The notes below the pieces were generated by a model. It ran no database searches and was not told where the DNA came from. It saw nothing but the letters and a program-made list of their open reading frames with translations. The translations under genes were made by a program, and so were the position numbers. DNA of 12,489 nt from a virus (taxonomy: Duplodnaviria; Heunggongvirae; Uroviricota; Caudoviricetes): IMG/VR virus record IMGVR_UViG_2636415416_000016; one strand, given 5' to 3'. Below, one piece after another: positions 1-11,274 of the stretch; the first letter of the stretch is position 1, and each line of letters opens with the position of its first letter.

Positions 1-516
1 TTAATTACGTAAGCGTTGATAAAAGAGTCGGATGCAGCCCAGTTTCACCATCGCCAGGTAATTTCTCGCCGTTTTGTCGTAACGCGTGGCGATGCGGCGA
101 TATTCTTTCAGCCGCCCAAAGCACCGTTCAACGACATTACGATTGCAGTACGCATCACGATCAAGCTGTGCACGTCCATCCGATGCCATTTTCTCATTTG
201 ACTTTCGGGGGATTACTGCCTTTATACCGTTATTTTTCAGCTCGTTGCGCAATGCGCGCCCTGAATACGCTTTATCAGCCAGTACCGCATGTCCACGGCG
301 TTTCATGCTGCCGTTCTGACGCTGAACGCCAATCCCGTCCAGAAGTCGTTGCGCGAACTGGCTTTCATGAGCTTGTCCGGGGCTTAGCACGATATTTAAC
401 GGGAGGCCACTTCCGTCTGTTGCCAGATGGATTTTGGTGCCAAAACCGCCGCGAGAGCGACCCAGCCCATTATCTCCGTCGATATCGGGATGTTTTTTTG
501 AGCACCGGCGGCACAT
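1..516 (-). CDS. IS5-family transposase OrfB (DDE catalytic part), probably made as an OrfAB fusion by -1 frameshift
   Basis: 171-codon frame overlapping OrfA by 121 nt in the -1 frame. C-terminal motif NVVERCFGRLKEYRRIATRYDK is typical of IS5-family DDE transposases. Stop TAA at 1-3. Confidence 0.6.
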   Translation of the reverse strand: MCRRCSKKHPDIDGDNGLGRSRGGFGTKIHLATDGSGLPLNIVLSPGQAHESQFAQRLLDGIGVQRQNGSMKRRGHAVLADKAYSGRALRNELKNNGIKAVIPRKSNEKMASDGRAQLDRDAYCNRNVVERCFGRLKEYRRIATRYDKTARNYLAMVKLGCIRLFYQRLRN

Positions 517-764
517 TTCAGCGCCCGGATATTACTGCCATCCAGCGCGGTGGCAGACCAGTCAATAAAGCCGTTTGCATCAAGTAGCGAAAGCAACCTG
601 TTGAAAATAATATTAATCACGCCTGACTTTGACCATCGGTTAAAGCGGTTATAAACAGTTTTCCATGACCCATATCGTTCGGGTAAATCGCGCCATGGTG
701 CACCGGAACATAACACCCAGAACATGCCATTGATGATTTTACGGTGCTCAAGCCCCGGCGACAT
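396..764 (-). CDS. IS5-family transposase OrfA (N-terminal DNA-binding part)
   Basis: ATG at 762-764 with an in-frame TAG directly upstream (768-770). Motif FWVLCSGAPWRDLPERYGSWKTVYNRFNRW is typical of the DUF4096-type N-terminus of IS5-family transposases. The N-terminus looks short compared with family members as I recall them, so the element may be 5'-truncated. Confidence 0.6.
   Translation of the reverse strand: MSPGLEHRKIINGMFWVLCSGAPWRDLPERYGSWKTVYNRFNRWSKSGVINIIFNRLLSLLDANGFIDWSATALDGSNIRALKCAAGAQKNIPISTEIMGWVALAAVLAPKSIWQQTEVASR
492..498 (-). other. candidate -1 programmed ribosomal frameshift heptamer A_AAA_AAC
   Basis: Minus strand reads GGT GCT CAA AAA AAC ATC in the OrfA frame. 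A -1 slip on A AAA AAC gives AAA AAA CAT CCC GAT = KKHPD, which is exactly the OrfB frame. Confidence 0.5.
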
Positions 765-1383
765 TACCTATACCCGGAACAACGGAACCAAGTTGCGCAC
801 CCGCTAAAGCGCCTGATGCCGCCCCACCAATACCACGCGCAAGACTGGATGGCTGCTGCGCCTGACCTGCACGAATGGCGCCAAGCCCCTGCAAGAGTTG
901 CCCGGTATTATTGGCGTAGTTTTGCCCTGCTGTTGCCTGCCCTGATGCCGCATTCATCCCGACATTTAGCAGGTTTCCATAATTTTGCATTTGCCCACTG
1001 AGCCAATTGTTATAAAGCATGGGCGCAATGGAAGATAACTGGTTACTGGTAGCTGTTGAGCCAAGCCCCCCGGTAGCTTCTGCTGAGACAAGGTTCTGAT
1101 AACGGGCCTGATCTGCCTGTGTTTTATATAAACCAGAACCAAAGAAATCATTCGCGGCTTTATTCTGCCCTTCCAGAGTCATCAGTCCTTGCAGTTGTTG
1201 TAAAGCAGGCAATCCGACTTCTGCATACGGCTTGAGATTATTCATCACCGTATTCCACTGCTCGCGCTGCAAATCAATTGCCTGCTGCTGGGCCTTCGCC
1301 TGAGCTTTAGAGGCACCACCATCACCGCCTTTTTCGTATACGGCACGATTGAGATGTTTATGAGCTATATGGGTAATTAACAT
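748..1383 (-). CDS. Gly/Gln/Ala/Asn-rich low-complexity protein with coiled-coil-like N-terminal segment; function unknown; 3' end lies inside the IS fragment (disrupted or chimeric C-terminus)
   Basis: ATG at 1381-1383 overlaps the upstream stop (ATGTTAA, 1377-1383), with AAGGAA about 9 nt upstream. Codon usage is coding-like throughout. The frame runs into IS sequence and ends at TGA 748-750, overlapping the transposase OrfA start. Confidence 0.5.
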   Translation of the reverse strand: MLITHIAHKHLNRAVYEKGGDGGASKAQAKAQQQAIDLQREQWNTVMNNLKPYAEVGLPALQQLQGLMTLEGQNKAANDFFGSGLYKTQADQARYQNLVSAEATGGLGSTATSNQLSSIAPMLYNNWLSGQMQNYGNLLNVGMNAASGQATAGQNYANNTGQLLQGLGAIRAGQAQQPSSLARGIGGAASGALAGAQLGSVVPGIGNVAGA

Positions 1384-1838
1384 TCGCTGAATTCCTTATA
1401 TTGTTGCCGAGTTAACTGATAAAGCGTTACGCCGACGGGTTTACCACATCTGATATAAGCATCATCAAGGTGACCAACACGGGTAGCGCCAAGCAAACGG
1501 ATAATTGCCCGTCCATATTTCGTGGTGTCAGGAACCATAGTGATGCTGTTAAGGAATGGTGAGTTTTCGAGAAGCCATTTGCAGAATAATCGATGCCCTT
1601 GCAGTGCATATTCACCACGGAATCCGGGGTCGTACACCGCATGGCATTCAACAACGCTATGCCAGAAGTTACGCACTTCATGAACGCCAGCCAGCACTAA
1701 TCCTTCGTAGATGCCGAGATATACCGCATCAGGCTTGATGTAGTACGAGTGCCCCGGCTCAACAATATTTTCGGTATTGCCTGGCTCGTTAAGAAAGGCC
1801 TGTAATCGCACAGGGTTATCAATAAATTTTAGTTCCAT
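1377..1838 (-). CDS. hypothetical protein, 153 aa
   Basis: ATG at 1836-1838, 16 nt after the stop of the 53-codon ORF. Stop TAA at 1377-1379 overlaps the next start. No family recognised by eye. Confidence 0.6.
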   Translation of the reverse strand: MELKFIDNPVRLQAFLNEPGNTENIVEPGHSYYIKPDAVYLGIYEGLVLAGVHEVRNFWHSVVECHAVYDPGFRGEYALQGHRLFCKWLLENSPFLNSITMVPDTTKYGRAIIRLLGATRVGHLDDAYIRCGKPVGVTLYQLTRQQYKEFSEC

Positions 1839-1854
1839 GCGATGCCATCCATTT

Positions 1855-2016
1855 TCACATACAGCCTGCCAGCGCCTTATCTATTAACCCTCGTGCAATT
1901 TCATGCAGAGTTGGCGCTACTCCAATTCCTGATTTTTTACGCTGCTCTTCCTGAATTTTCTTTATCGCTTCCATTTGCTTCTCACTTATCAATACCGGCT
2001 TTACTGAAATAGCCAT
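1855..2016 (-). CDS. small hypothetical protein, 53 aa (MAISVKPVLISEKQMEAIKKIQEEQRKKSGIGVAPTLHEIARGLIDKALAGCM); possible small DNA-binding regulator
   Basis: Below the length cutoff of the supplied ORF track. ATG at 2014-2016 is preceded by AAGGGGG (2021-2027) at 4-nt spacing; stop TGA at 1855-1857. AT-rich codons lower confidence. The strand-helix-helix pattern is only weakly ribbon-helix-helix-like. Confidence 0.35.
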   Translation of the reverse strand: MAISVKPVLISEKQMEAIKKIQEEQRKKSGIGVAPTLHEIARGLIDKALAGCM

Positions 2017-2111
2017 AACGCCCCCTTATAACTGTATAAAACAACAGTTATTATAGTTTCACAAATCGCAATATTCATCATCGTAATTGCAGAATATGAA
2101 ACAAATAGCAC

Positions 2112-2142
2112 AAAAAAATGCCACCGCTCAGTAGCTGGTGGC
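2112..2142 (-). terminator. rho-independent terminator for the minus-strand replication operon
   Basis: Minus strand reads GCCACC-A-GCT ACTG AGC-GGTGGC followed by A and TTTTTTT (2112-2118): a GC-rich 9-bp stem with one bulge, a 4-nt loop and a U7 tract. On the plus strand the A-run precedes the hairpin, so it is unidirectional. Confidence 0.5.
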
Positions 2143-2337
2143 GTCGTTCTGTGTGTCAGGTTTTGACAGGTTTTTTATGGACTCTAAAAACTATATTTAT
2201 GGTGTCGCATTACTCTTCACGGCAGGCGCTTTTCAGTTCTGCCCTTGCTTCTGGCTCCATTGGTAATTTGATTCGCGATCAGCTATGCGGATGGTTTGCT
2301 GAACAGGCATAACAACTTCTCAGAGGCTGTTTTTTGA

Positions 2338-2356
2338 ACTACGAAAATTTCGTAGT
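2338..2356. repeat. perfect palindrome ACTACGAAA-A-TTTCGTAGT (operator-like, core TACGA-N5-TCGTA)
   Basis: 9-bp arms around a single central base, read directly from the sequence. Confidence 0.55.
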
Positions 2357-2393
2357 GCTCACTTTCAAAAACGTCACGCCCTTGTACACAGGA

Positions 2394-2414
2394 TTTTACG
2401 AAAGTCTCGTAAAA
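2394..2414. repeat. inverted repeat TTTTACGA-AAGTC-TCGTAAAA (second TACGA-N5-TCGTA site)
   Basis: 8-bp arms with a 5-bp spacer. Shares the TACGA-N5-TCGTA core with the 2338-2356 site, centre to centre about 57 bp apart. Confidence 0.55.
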
Positions 2415-2462
2415 CACTCTCTGATGCCAGCCAGGTGTTGTGCGCATCAATTCAGTCACATT

Positions 2463-2600
2463 GTGTTGGTTCAAAATACCGTGTTGTTGGTTCAGTGTTG
2501 GTTCAAAATACCGTGTTGTTGGTTCAGTGTTGGTTCAATAAAAAGAATAAAATCCTTATAAAACAATACCATTTACAAATTGAACCAACTGAACCAACAC
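2463..2600. repeat. iteron array, candidate replication origin: five direct copies of GTGTTGGTTCA, AT-rich spacer, two inverted copies
   Basis: Direct copies at 2463-2473, 2481-2494, 2495-2505, 2513-2526 and 2527-2537 form a 32-bp unit repeated twice plus a partial copy. A 43-bp spacer of about 80 percent A+T (2538-2580) follows. Inverted copies TGAACCAAC and TGAACCAACAC lie at 2581-2589 and 2590-2600. The array starts 24 bp after the primase stop. Confidence 0.6.
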
Positions 2601-2623
2601 CTTTTCTACGCACATGAAGAAGC

Positions 2624-5383
2624 TCATTCTTCAGATGAGTTATAATCTCCTGGCTGGTAATTGAGTACATAAACGTTTATTTGTCGTCCCTGAATACGTG
2701 GTGATTTTCTTTGGTATCCACGACCGCTGTTTGGTGGGGTTAGCATCCCGGCTTTTTTCAACACTTCAGCAAACTGTTTTGCGTTGAAACCACATGCGAT
2801 CTCCTTTTCAAATGTGGCCGGGAATGTGTAGAAAATCATTGGGCTTTCGTCATGTTCTCCACGCTGACGGTATCCGGCTAAATCTTTGATGGGCAAATCT
2901 GCCGGGCTGTATGGAAATGGTGCAAAACGGCTAAGCCCATAGGCATTAAGAAATGCCTCCGTTTGTTCAATAATCTGCTGATGTTCTTTGTTACCTGTGC
3001 CGAACTCGCGCAACCATGCGTTATAGCTGTGCTGTATCGCATCACGGCATGTCTGAGCATCCCAGCCTGTTACAACCTCGCCTAACAGCAATGCGGCCTC
3101 CAGAATGGCAAATCGCGCGGCTACACGGTGAACCTGCTCACCATAATCGGATGGGATCAGGTTTCTCCATCTGCTTTCGCAATCACGAACGGTTTTAATA
3201 GCCTGTTGCTGGTGGTCTGCCAGCCATTTAATCCACTCACGCCCGGCTGCGCCGTGGTGATGCTGGTAAGCGTCTTTCAGTGCGTCTGCGTGCTGTTTTC
3301 CGTTCTGGTAATCGTGAAAGCGTACTGCTTTACTCAACGGAATATTCAGCAGTCGCACCAGTTGCCCGGCTTTGGTTTTTCGCCCGGAAGTAGCGATAAA
3401 TGTTTCTAAATCCATTTCTCCGGTGCTGATTGCCACTGTACGCCAGCGTTTTAGATCCCGGTTTCCACCATCTTTAGCGCCTTGCAGTTTCCCTACACCG
3501 TTAAATAACGCATAGGCAGACTGTGAAACGCTGACAGGATCAGCGCCCTGACCAACTTCATCAAGCGGCATTAGTCCGTCATTGTGGGCGGCGGCCTCAT
3601 TTGCCAGCCCCAGCGCGGTTCCGTACCACGTCAGCCGCAGTAAATCAGGGTTGCCGTATAAGCTGCTCGCCACGTTTGCCGTGGTGGTCTTACCTGCGCT
3701 CGACTGCTCATAGAAATGAATGCCGAACCCGTCAGCGCCCACCAGCCCAATCAATGGCGCTGCCAGTGCTGCGCCGATCCCGGTCATCATTGAATAGTTA
3801 CCAAAGGCCAGACGCGCCACGTTATCACGCCAGCTTTTCGCGCTCCCTGAGACGGTATATCCGGCTGCGGCTGAGCTTCTCCCGCTGAACAGCACAGGAT
3901 TTTCAGGTGTTCCGATGATTTCCCCATCAGGCATGATGTACGCTCCGCATTGCCAGACAGTGGCATGAGCAACACGCCACAATTCACGAGAGCCACTGCG
4001 TTGTAGCCAGTCTGCCAGTATTGCTCTGAGGCTGCTTTTGGTCGTGACATTTACCCCACCAGCTTTAAGTGTGCGCCATCCTTCACGTTCACCAATATCA
4101 GCCAGTGGAATGGCAGCGGTTGTCGGCGTTTCAGAACCAAACGACAGCCAGCGAAGAATGAGATACTGGTCTTTATCGTCTCTGCCAGTACCGATAACGC
4201 TTAACGGAGAACATAACCAGCTTTCGTTATTGATGATTTCTCCACTCTGGCTGTCAGCTCTCGGAGATACCCAATAAATACCATCCTCGCGGCTTTCTAT
4301 TCTTGGTTTCAGTGGGTCGGTATCCATAACCTTAAAATCGCTTCCCTCAATGGTCTGTGGCTCCTGTTTCACGCCATTACCCTGTGGTTGGTACATTGAC
4401 TTATTGAACGCTTCTGTGGCGCATTTAATGCCGTGTTTTTGGTGGTAATCATTCCAGTCTGCTTTGTGATCTGTCGGGGGTAATGCCACCCATCCAGAAA
4501 CAGATAAAGCTGCTTTTTCTGCTGCTATTCTCCCCGTGTTTTGTCTTCCTTCGCTGTGGTCGTTATCCGCAGCAATGATGATTTGTGCTGAAGGAAATTT
4601 ATCCCGCAGTACCTGGGCGACATATAACAGGTTCCCGGCATCAATCGCCGCCACTGTCAGCGCCTCTGGACGAATTAAATGGGCAGATAATGCCGTTGCC
4701 AGCCCTTCTGCGATTAAGATGCTCTGTGTTGTTTCTGGCGCGTTTATGGCGTGATATGCCCCCCGCTTTGCTGAACCTGTCAGGAGTCTTTTTTCACCAT
4801 GTGATGTAATAGTCTGTGCTGCTGTGACTGCGCCGGATTTATCCACCAGCGCCAGCAACAGAGATCCATCGGGCAACACGGGGAATGTAAAATCACCTAC
4901 CCCTTTCGCAACCAGATAATCAGATTTGCCGTTTACAGCCTTTCTGCGCATGTCATCAAACTGACGGGAAAACGTATCCCGTCTTTGTTGTTCGTCCTTC
5001 TCTGCCCTTTTCAGGCGCTCCTGTTCGCGTCGCTGGCGCTCGGTTTCCAGTTGTTCCCGTTTCTGGCTGGTGGCTTCTGGTGTTTCCGTTGTCCGGTAAT
5101 CAATACCCAGAACATCAGCGGCAAGAAGCGCCGCCTCTGTTGTGTCGCAGTTATTTACGCGTTTAATTAAATCCAGCCCATCACCAGCGCCGCACTGATT
5201 ACAGATGAAGCTACCGCGCCCGTTGTCATCGAACCGGAATCGATCTTTGCCCCCACATGCAGGGCAGGGAGCATGACGGCGCGGAGAGTCAGGGACATTT
5301 ATGTTCAGGCAGCCCAGCACATGAGGCCAGTTGTTTTCAGACGCACTGATAACCTGACGGATAAGATCAATGTTTCGCATCAC
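2624..5383 (-). CDS. replication primase-helicase: N-terminal primase zinc ribbon, TOPRIM domain, C-terminal P-loop NTPase (DUF927-like)
   Basis: 919-codon ORF. N-terminus has CPACGGKDRFRFDDNGRGSFICNQCGAGDG (primase zinc-ribbon signature); central IIIAADNDH is a TOPRIM acidic motif; C-terminal half has Walker A SSAGKTT and Walker B LMPLDEV. Start is GTG 5381-5383 or ATG 5378-5380, overlapping the upstream gene stop. Stop TGA at 2624-2626. Confidence 0.85.
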   Translation of the reverse strand: MMRNIDLIRQVISASENNWPHVLGCLNINVPDSPRRHAPCPACGGKDRFRFDDNGRGSFICNQCGAGDGLDLIKRVNNCDTTEAALLAADVLGIDYRTTETPEATSQKREQLETERQRREQERLKRAEKDEQQRRDTFSRQFDDMRRKAVNGKSDYLVAKGVGDFTFPVLPDGSLLLALVDKSGAVTAAQTITSHGEKRLLTGSAKRGAYHAINAPETTQSILIAEGLATALSAHLIRPEALTVAAIDAGNLLYVAQVLRDKFPSAQIIIAADNDHSEGRQNTGRIAAEKAALSVSGWVALPPTDHKADWNDYHQKHGIKCATEAFNKSMYQPQGNGVKQEPQTIEGSDFKVMDTDPLKPRIESREDGIYWVSPRADSQSGEIINNESWLCSPLSVIGTGRDDKDQYLILRWLSFGSETPTTAAIPLADIGEREGWRTLKAGGVNVTTKSSLRAILADWLQRSGSRELWRVAHATVWQCGAYIMPDGEIIGTPENPVLFSGRSSAAAGYTVSGSAKSWRDNVARLAFGNYSMMTGIGAALAAPLIGLVGADGFGIHFYEQSSAGKTTTANVASSLYGNPDLLRLTWYGTALGLANEAAAHNDGLMPLDEVGQGADPVSVSQSAYALFNGVGKLQGAKDGGNRDLKRWRTVAISTGEMDLETFIATSGRKTKAGQLVRLLNIPLSKAVRFHDYQNGKQHADALKDAYQHHHGAAGREWIKWLADHQQQAIKTVRDCESRWRNLIPSDYGEQVHRVAARFAILEAALLLGEVVTGWDAQTCRDAIQHSYNAWLREFGTGNKEHQQIIEQTEAFLNAYGLSRFAPFPYSPADLPIKDLAGYRQRGEHDESPMIFYTFPATFEKEIACGFNAKQFAEVLKKAGMLTPPNSGRGYQRKSPRIQGRQINVYVLNYQPGDYNSSEE

Positions 5384-7159: not shown

Positions 7160-7350
7160 TTTTCACCCCCAAGAATTACCAGCTCGGCACGGGCATCGTT
7201 AACCAAAGATGAGCACGCTTTAATCGCATCCACGACATCAGTAGCGTCCATTTCTTCAGCCGAAAGACTGACAGCAACCAGGACAGCCGCTGCTTGCTCG
7301 ATTAATTGAAGTGCGGACGTAAGGCGAGGGGTATTAATTGAGTTATTCAT
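7156..7350 (-). CDS. hypothetical small protein, 64 aa
   Basis: ATG at 7348-7350 is preferred over the GTG at 7407 used by the ORF track. ATGAATAA overlap with the upstream stop at 7343-7345; G-rich Shine-Dalgarno-like stretch upstream. Confidence 0.5.
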   Translation of the reverse strand: MNNSINTPRLTSALQLIEQAAAVLVAVSLSAEEMDATDVVDAIKACSSLVNDARAELVILGGEK

Positions 7351-7561
7351 TGGTTGCCCCCGTTTTTCCTGGCATTTCGCCACCTTCCAGCAGGAAATGA
7401 ACGTCACGAACGGCGAGATCCAATATCGCGAGTAACGCCTTCAGTCTTTCGTCTCGTGAGGGAGAGTTGCTCACCAGAATGTCGTTAATCACTTCTGTCA
7501 GTGTGATGATCTGGCTTGTGCGTTCGAGGGGATCCATATGCACATCGTAGGTTTTAATCAT
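7343..7561 (-). CDS. hypothetical small protein, 72 aa ([17 protein letters not shown]...); in frame with, and possibly the C-terminal part of, the long 7343-8410 open frame
   Basis: ATG at 7559-7561 preceded by GGAGGTG at about 5 nt; overlaps the stop of the 7554-7748 gene as ATGATTAA. Coding-like codon usage. Confidence 0.4.
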   Translation of the reverse strand: MIKTYDVHMDPLERTSQIITLTEVINDILVSNSPSRDERLKALLAILDLAVRDVHFLLEGGEMPGKTGATNE

Positions 7562-8410
7562 GTGCCACCTCCATGCGGATACGACCAGCAAAAAAGCAGA
7601 TGTGATCGCGCACCAGAGAACGGCGAGCATCGCGTTCAGACTCGGCAGCAATATGATGAATTTTGGCGGTAATTGTCGGGCAATCGCGGCGAACTGCGGC
7701 GATAATCCAGATAAATTGCGGTTTTTGGGTAGTGGTAGTAGCCAGCATGTGGCAGCCTCCTTGTACTGGGAGTTCTTCCCACCACCGGAGCTGCGAAACT
7801 CGCTGGTGGTGGACTGAACAGAGTTCGCAGTACCGGCGTACAAGGAAACCGGCCAGCCTTTCGGCTGCCCTGTCCAGCCCACCATAATTTTGCAAGCGAC
7901 GCGGATTATAACCGCATCACTGAAAAAAGTGTGAGTCTGGCTAACGGCACAAAAAAAGACGCTCGGCGCGTCATGTGTCGCCTCGTACATTTCCGGGCTG
8001 CGAAACCCGGCACCCGTTTTATGAGGTGCCTTATAACCATAAACCGTGTTGCCGCATAACGGCAAGCTCTTTTTTATGGACTCCGAAAACTCACTATTGG
8101 AAGCACCAGATGCACAATACATCGCGCTCATTTCGTTAACGTCGCGCGTGTGGACGAAGGTTTTTGTGGAGTCACTACGCGAGCAGAGAAAGCCATCTAC
8201 GACCAGAAATTCTCTGGCGCAGCCGCCGACCTTCTCAACGCTAACACCATCGACCGTAATTTCTGACATAGTTAAGGCATTCGCTCCCACCACCAGAAAA
8301 TGATAAACTTTGCTTGTATCTGCTGTATTAATGCCAGACTTTGCTGTCATATTGCTGGATTTTGGCGACATACCAGCCAGTGAAAATATCTTCTTCTGGA
8401 CGGTTAGCAT
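7343..8410 (-). CDS. long open frame (355 codons); only the first 220 or so codons (8410 to about 7750) look coding; possibly Ash-family-like (memory only); no in-frame stop before 7343
   Basis: ATG at 8408-8410 preceded by GGAGGT at 6 nt; overlaps the upstream stop (ATGCTAA). Codon usage is good from 8410 to about 7750, poor from 7748 to 7561 where the 64-aa gene occupies another frame, then good again from 7561. The true 3' end is ambiguous. Confidence 0.45.
7554..7748 (-). CDS. small protein, 64 aa ([43 protein letters not shown]...); resembles, from memory only, Icd-like host cell division inhibitor proteins of P4-like elements
   Basis: ATG at 7746-7748 preceded by AAGGAGG (7756-7762) at 7-nt spacing. 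Codon usage in this frame is strongly E. coli-like (all Arg as CGC/CGT, Leu as CTG), whereas the overlapping long frame uses CTA/TTA/CGA/AGG/ATA here. The TTG start at 7895 used by the ORF track is rejected. Confidence 0.5.
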   Translation of the reverse strand: MLATTTTQKPQFIWIIAAVRRDCPTITAKIHHIAAESERDARRSLVRDHICFFAGRIRMEVAHD

Positions 8411-11132: not shown

Positions 11133-11274
11133 ACGCCACCCCGCGCCCCTAATTCTGACGGCTATGCCAGCCCGTAGGGGTGTACGGGTTTTCGGGGATC
11201 AGCCTAGACATAGCCTATTCTTTGTTCGTCTACATAAGTCTACTACCATTGCTTAACACGGTCTATTCATACAG

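Follow-up and report, generated by a model that had tools for sequence, protein, structure and literature searches.

A one-ended ISSfl7-like remnant joined to a truncated P22 gp7-like gene marks a deletion scar in a Shigella lineage

Large deletions in Shigella commonly arise through recombination between insertion sequences (IS), and both this process and the adjacent deletions made by a transposase leave a complete IS end at the joint. In IS1 (insA/insB') and in the IS3 family (orfA/orfB), a DNA-binding ORF is followed by a catalytic ORF in the -1 frame, with an A-rich slippery heptamer to join the two, and IS1 uses A_AAA_AAC as a ribosomal frameshift motif. The IS5 family is also listed among the IS families that use a frameshift event (PMC5009743), and an insertion of ISSfl7 is on record in fimD of S. 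boydii CIP52-54 (PMC4374849). The locus described here resembles the IS-associated genome reduction of Shigella in that a large block of E. coli backbone is missing at an IS-marked site; however, the joint does not lie at the IS terminus.

The window, by which we mean the whole stretch of 12,489 nucleotides that was analysed, corresponds to AMJQ01000555.1, which it matches at every one of 11,383 bases. When aligned with two intact copies, positions 1-750 (minus strand) proved to be bases 156-905 of a 916-bp ISSfl7-like element of the IS5 family. The two intact copies lie in unrelated contexts, one splitting yfaL and the other within a prophage region. Window base 750 is IS base 156 and window base 1 is IS base 905, the final base of the orfB stop codon; the window agrees with the intact copies up to base 750 and diverges beyond. 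Over this remnant, identity to intact IS5-family copies on E. coli chromosomes and plasmids was 99.7%, and identity to copies annotated 'IS5-like element ISSfl7 family transposase', a name given by RefSeq, was 99.5-99.7% over 750 bp.

Intact ISSfl7-like copies measure 916 bp, end in perfect 16-bp inverted repeats (GGCTGTGTCCCTTAAT) and are flanked on each side by TA. Within them, orfA starts at base 61, the slippery heptamer occupies bases 408-414 and the orfB stop codon extends to base 905. The window copy shares with ISSfl7, whose transposase is of the NCBIfam type NF033580 ('transpos_IS5_3'), the orfA/orfB layout, the heptamer and an identical right inverted repeat (IRR), whose last 11 bases lie past the edge of the window but are preserved in the source contig, the repeat being present in L004/L006. 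It differs from ISSfl7 by the absence of the left 155 bp, which comprise the left inverted repeat (IRL), the leader and the first 32 orfA codons, so that the window copy does not have two terminal inverted repeats. It also differs from the intact E. coli copies by a single base at window position 147 (minus strand), which changes Arg to Cys in the DAY(R/C)NRNVVER stretch of OrfB. This change is common to other Shigella copies: the exact 171-aa Cys variant of OrfB is encoded by many copies in Shigella boydii ATCC 9905 and S. dysenteriae 1012. Because the remnant is one-ended and leader-less, it cannot move and is an immobile fossil of a known IS; the IS promoter would normally lie in the lost leader.

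The DNA to the other side of the joint belongs to a phage-type gene. The ORF at 748-1383 (minus strand), previously described only as Gly-rich, encodes a P22 gp7-like DNA-ejection protein (Pfam P22_gp7, PF25688, 1.3e-69; 235 bits against a cut-off of 28), with a match that ends at position 212 of 230. The 'DNA ejection' profile phrog_598 matches the intact 225-aa homologue of L003. Upstream in the same operon, profile matches identified a DUF2824 gene (phrog_651, 'head morphogenesis') at 1377-1838 (minus strand). Window positions 751-1400 are 99.8% identical to a gp7-like/DUF2824 locus that 255 of 5,426 complete E. coli genomes carry as a single chromosomal copy. The earlier note suspected that the Gly-rich protein had lost part of its C-terminus, and comparison with an intact homologue confirmed it: codons 1-211 encode an identical protein sequence, the 14 C-terminal residues (IGGGLIGLVGGLGF) have been lost and the ORF, with 211 of 225 codons, terminates before its natural stop codon.

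A three-way alignment of the window with the intact gp7-like gene and the intact IS placed the joint between position 750, the last IS-derived base, and position 751, the first gp7-like base. The gp7-like gene thus retains 211 native codons (751-1383), and the TGA that closes its reading frame (750-748, minus strand) is made of the first three IS-derived bases. The earlier note correctly described a Gly-rich ORF overlapping the transposase frame at 748-764 but took this region for the start of the transposase; only the TGA comes from the IS. Positions 751-764 (minus strand) are gp7-like DNA read in another frame (ATG TCG CCG GGG CT-), and since this DNA is not part of the IS, the chimeric 'OrfA' owes its ATG (762-764) and its residues MSPG(L) to accident: MSPGL is a chance chimeric start and not a transposase start. 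No microhomology in register was found at the joint; the two parental sequences share AGCCC, offset by one base.

We could establish where the IS had originally inserted from contigs that share this joint and extend past the window. On the far side of the IS, these contigs carry an intact IRR, TA and the first 42 codons of yaiO, with the breakpoint in yaiO placed by blastn. Beyond yaiO lie a hexapeptide acetyltransferase gene (yaiX-like), yaiP, tauABCD and hemB. The TA thus adjoins the right end of the IS copy in yaiO, and the opposite flank no longer exists. This intact IRR-TA-yaiO joint identifies the real insertion site as a TA in yaiO and not as the gp7-like gene. The earlier note had proposed that the IS transposed into the Gly-rich gene and was then truncated in place, as the contiguity and common orientation of IS and gene might suggest. 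What survives of this proposal is that IS and gene are both truncated. Insertion into the gp7-like gene itself now appears extremely improbable: the joint falls at IS base 156 and at neither inverted repeat, the gene lacks its final 45 bp along with everything downstream, and the sole intact IS end is found at the TA in yaiO. Nor is this a simple intact insertion, given that comparison with the intact copies set the joint at 750|751 and found IRL to be absent.

The extent of the missing DNA can be appreciated in E. coli CFSAN061761, where the yaiO and gp7-like breakpoints are 111,763 bp apart. In this strain, the interval contains the 3' part of yaiO, frmRAB, yaiL, mhp, lacIZYA, cyn, codBA, prp and yah, a strain-specific mer/IS1 segment, rcl, ykg, ecp and pao, as well as the distal part of the island that carries the gp7-like gene, including its gp20-like and gp16-like genes. 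The retained flanks have the same order and orientation as in CFSAN061761. This collinearity is as expected of a simple deletion and not of an inversion; the missing genes may be located elsewhere in the genome.

In the scenario that we consider probable, ISSfl7 inserted in yaiO and a single deletion later cut into the IS as well as into the island. An ISSfl7-like element would first have inserted at the TA after codon 42 of chromosomal yaiO. A later deletion would then have had one endpoint between IS bases 155 and 156 and the other after codon 211 of the gp7-like gene, in the P4-type island at thrW. Such a deletion would have covered IRL, the leader, the first 32 orfA codons and the 3' part of yaiO, together with all chromosomal DNA between yaiO and the island and the distal island with its gp20-like and gp16-like genes. 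The ends were presumably joined by illegitimate recombination, possibly aided by the offset AGCCC match. This scenario builds on the directly observed anatomy of the remnant, the two parental sequences, the exact joint, the collinearity of the flanks and the occurrence of the scar in several assemblies. A precursor, that is the IS joined to yaiO, was searched for in 5,426 complete E. coli genomes and none was found; likewise, all contexts of the DUF2824 protein variant of the window contained no intermediate. Because neither was found, that the loss took place as a single event is something that we infer.

The earlier note had alternatively ascribed the loss of the island boundary to a deletion mediated by the IS. 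The distal island is gone, as it had supposed, but IRL and the whole left 155 bp were themselves deleted, and the joint, at IS base 156, is not an IS terminus that keeps a complete inverted repeat. With the joint 155 bp inside the IS, neither a transposase-made deletion nor IS-IS recombination explains the scar alone. The IS itself suffered the deletion, or at most stood by and was trimmed afterwards; an IS found at the edge of a deletion need not be its cause.

IS-IS recombination might still have contributed to a history in two steps. An island-distal ISSfl7 copy in the same orientation could have recombined with the yaiO copy, with a loss of about 100 kb that left one complete IS, after which a small deletion would have taken away the left IS end together with island DNA as far as codon 211 of the gp7-like gene. 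Suitable partners can be numerous, as the intact IS occupies up to 36 places in one genome, and a second ISSfl7 copy does lie about 9 kb away, beside hemB, in L004/L005; this history would also follow the common route to large Shigella deletions. It nevertheless requires an extra event, and no ISSfl7 was present downstream of the gp7-like gene among the island contexts recovered. We thus regard the two-step history as decidedly unlikely and favour the yaiO insertion followed by one deletion.

The scar is common to a Shigella lineage and was present in several independent assemblies. The same joint was found in the 452-kb contig AFFZ01000095.1 and in AAMJ02000008.1, which belongs to the assembly of S. 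dysenteriae 1012 (PMC2974192). The exact truncated gp7-like protein was found on 42 contigs, named as Shigella dysenteriae, and GenBank already holds it as 'DNA transfer protein, partial'. All contexts found for the DUF2824 protein variant of the window showed the 211-codon truncation, and the same IS was present in each of these contigs that extends past the truncated gene. The 40-base junction had no match in species-representative genomes. The scar marks a Shigella lineage without about 112 kb of E. coli backbone (as measured in one reference strain), including lacIZYA, mhp, prp, cyn, ecp and pao, and with an island that has no natural left boundary in this genome. Both the IS and this kind of scar are already known, and finding them together is unsurprising for Shigella. 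For annotation purposes, the ORFs at 396-764 and 748-1383 are pseudogene fragments.

Although it has lost its left end, the remnant preserves the coding arrangement of the transposase. The OrfA frame is open from 396 to 764 (minus strand, 122 aa) and the OrfB frame from 1 to 516 (minus strand, 171 aa), with an overlap at 396-516. The IS-derived part of orfA (396-750, minus strand), delimited from the ORFs and a DUF4096 match, contains codons 33-149 and the stop codon at 396-398. The orfB frame, which is -1 relative to orfA, encodes the C-terminal DDE part of the transposase (Pfam DDE_Tnp_1, 2e-21). A loss of about 25 N-terminal residues had been anticipated for OrfA; the truncation is real and, by comparison with the intact copies, amounts to 32 residues (MARYDLPDEAWTIIKPLLPPEPATPRAGRPWA). 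Accordingly, the N-terminus of DUF4096 is incomplete, with a Pfam match at profile positions 27-75 of 76.

As described in the earlier note, orfA and orfB are split at an A_AAA_AAC heptamer (492-498, minus strand), which was read directly from the sequence and lies within the 396-516 overlap and within an A7 run (493-499). The minus strand reads GCT CAA AAA AAC ATC CCG, in which A_AAA_AAC (498 to 492) has the X_XXY_YYZ phase of the OrfA frame. A -1 slip at this site would give ...AQKN-HPDIDGD..., and the heptamer is unchanged in the intact copies. The OrfAB fusion that the earlier note predicted is colinear with NF033580: it gave a single unbroken match, at positions 2-257, which spans the shift point (286.7 bits for the window fusion and 320.4 bits for the intact fusion, against a cut-off of 110), and in the window product the match begins at position 29 of 258. 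Moreover, RefSeq labels the intact copies 'programmed frameshift'. We rejected the heptamer as a rare motif, with 5 copies in the window against 3.35 expected. The heptamer is credible because of its phase and position, and because the NF033580 match runs unbroken across the shift point.

The predicted fusions ...AQKN-HPD... and ...AQKK-HPD... had no exact match in the protein collection. In the RefSeq model, the shift is set two codons upstream and the annotated fusions read ...AAGGSKKHPD...; because of this convention, an exact look-up is uninformative on the real slip site. Folding of the downstream RNA predicted a hairpin right after the heptamer, no better than those of shuffled sequences (z = -0.95). 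The ISSfl7-like element resembles the IS1 and IS3-family cassettes in the order of its two ORFs, in the -1 frame of the second and in the A-rich slippery heptamer that joins them; in contrast to these cassettes, no convincing downstream stimulator was seen, and the frameshift is here predicted from sequence. The first catalytic Asp appears, from family motifs, to lie within the orfA part (ALDGS), so that only the fusion could be active. The frameshift cassette presumably works in the intact copies.

In these intact copies, RNA polymerase might alternatively slip on the A7 run and add one A to the mRNA, in place of ribosomes slipping on A_AAA_AAC. The homopolymeric nature of the run and the non-significant downstream structure would agree with such a mechanism. 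We nevertheless find it rather unlikely, as the run lies in perfect X_XXY_YYZ phase, as A7 is a short run for efficient slippage by E. coli RNA polymerase, and as its heptamer is the one that serves ribosomal frameshifting in IS1. From the published record, a substantial number of IS elements use transcriptional slippage in place of ribosomal frameshifting, and A_AAA_AAC is less shift-prone than A_AAA_AAG in E. coli (PMC5009743).

Translation of the chimeric ORF from the island operon is conceivable but speculative. If this ORF were expressed and mattered, transposase products short of 32 N-terminal residues might act in trans to modulate the many full ISSfl7 copies: with read-through of the DUF2824/gp7-like operon and coupling at the ATG (762-764) and the TGA (748-750), products that damp transposition could be made. 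Such a modulator would resemble the Tn5 inhibitor protein in being an N-terminally shortened transposase product. The two ORFs are co-oriented and overlapping, the ATG is preceded, at 5-7 bases, by a weak AGG, and the downstream frames and the frameshift site are intact, one base change away from active-looking copies. On the other hand, the ATG is an accident of the junction sequence, and the chimeric 122-aa ORF was not found in the protein collection, where no gene caller had called it. Moreover, the upstream gp7-like gene of one member of the group (L013) is called as two ORFs, of 138 and 90 aa, and its gene coordinates make it 1 bp shorter, as would be expected if a dead gene were decaying further. 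A role of the chimeric ORF in trans may therefore be considered very improbable.

The island in which the gp7-like gene resides is of the P4 type and is integrated at thrW; in E. coli CFSAN061761, which has it intact, it adjoins tRNA-Thr and proA. A search of this intact island for an attR repeat of the thrW 3' end (exact over at least 13 bases, or at least 19 of 24) found none, so that even intact relatives appear to be without a recognisable distal att site. In intact islands, the 225-aa gp7-like gene is followed by a 473-aa gp20-like gene and then by a 701-aa gp16-like gene; in the window, the ejection-protein module of the island is broken.

The relationship of this module to P22 is evident from the strong profile match of its gp7-like protein and from gene order: the DUF2824 gene precedes the gp7-like gene, at the position of gene 14 in P22, and the gp20-like and gp16-like genes come after it in intact islands, as in P22. 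It differs from P22 in being carried by a P4-type island at thrW and not by a P22-like phage, and the window version of the protein is also 14 residues shorter. Phage copies share with the island gene only about 68-75% DNA identity, over a third of the gp7-like gene, and for the gp20-like protein next to it, no phage protein among those searched exceeded 53% identity. That the thrW P4-type island carries a conserved P22-type module of 14-, 7-, 20- and 16-like genes is, in our view, more curious than the scar.

Relative to the E. coli CFSAN061761 reference, the genomes that carry the scar, the joint between the IS5-family remnant and the truncated gene for the P22 gp7-like DNA-ejection protein, lack 111,763 bp, from codon 42 of yaiO to codon 211 of the gp7-like gene (NZ_CP042903.1, 3,823,592-3,935,354). 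On the chromosomal side, the flank to the left of window base 1 corresponds to L004:11395-20636, in a longer Shigella contig with the same scar. Genes in the missing block include lacIZYA, mhp, prp, cyn, codBA, ecp and pao, and its loss at this locus may explain why this Shigella lineage is Lac-negative. In a further genome with the scar (GCA_900618165.1; L013:6456-7090), gene calling splits the truncated gp7-like gene into two ORFs, of 138 and 90 aa, and by its coordinates the gene is 1 bp shorter, which is consistent with further decay.

The island at thrW, which is also used by P22, is of the P4 type, with genes for an integrase, AlpA and a Zn-ribbon/Toprim/DUF927 primase. Downstream of the primase gene sits a P22-type block, of which the part remaining in the window spans 748-1838 on the minus strand; the intact version (L003:2430-7088) encodes DUF2824 (in the gene-14 position), gp7-like, gp20-like and gp16-like proteins. 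This intact block is found, about 99.8% conserved, in 255 of the 5,426 E. coli genomes. Among the phage proteins searched, none is more than 53% identical to the gp20-like protein, the best matches being from APSE phages. The block may be cargo of a satellite that exploits P22-like helpers, or else an old prophage remnant; our literature search found no paper combining "phage satellite" with "ejection protein". A search of the distal side of the intact island in CFSAN061761 (L007:15000-41500) for a repeated thrW 3' end gave neither an exact match of at least 13 bases nor one at 19 or more of 24 positions, and a recognisable attR is therefore absent even from intact relatives.

Rfam models placed three RNAs on the minus strand of the window: a C4 antisense RNA (7802-7889, 81 bits), isrK (7952-8029, 69 bits) and int-alpA (11147-11214, 46.7 bits). 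Because the first two fall within a 355-aa ORF (7343-8410), labelled "Ash family protein" in assemblies, part of this ORF may represent RNA genes instead of protein-coding DNA. Window 2016-2624 is non-coding, and the ejection-protein block may have its promoter there. An intergenic indel near window ~2599, between the primase gene and a 53-aa ORF, separates the window and another contig (L006) from the two longer Shigella contigs (L004 and L005), with an offset of 9 bp in gene coordinates.

A relative of the IS, 91% identical, occupies a single conserved position in the chromosomes of many E. coli (matches H14-H30). The copy that we examined, adjoining ompC in E. coli R32_14_1F (L009:775-965), carries an internal stop and a pseudogene annotation, and its slippery site reads CAAAAAAAATT (eight A, with the C lost) as against CAAAAAAAC. 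In the Shigella contigs, the same IS5-family transposase recurs some 9 kb away from the scar, past hemB (L004:20308-20636; L005:20309-20636).
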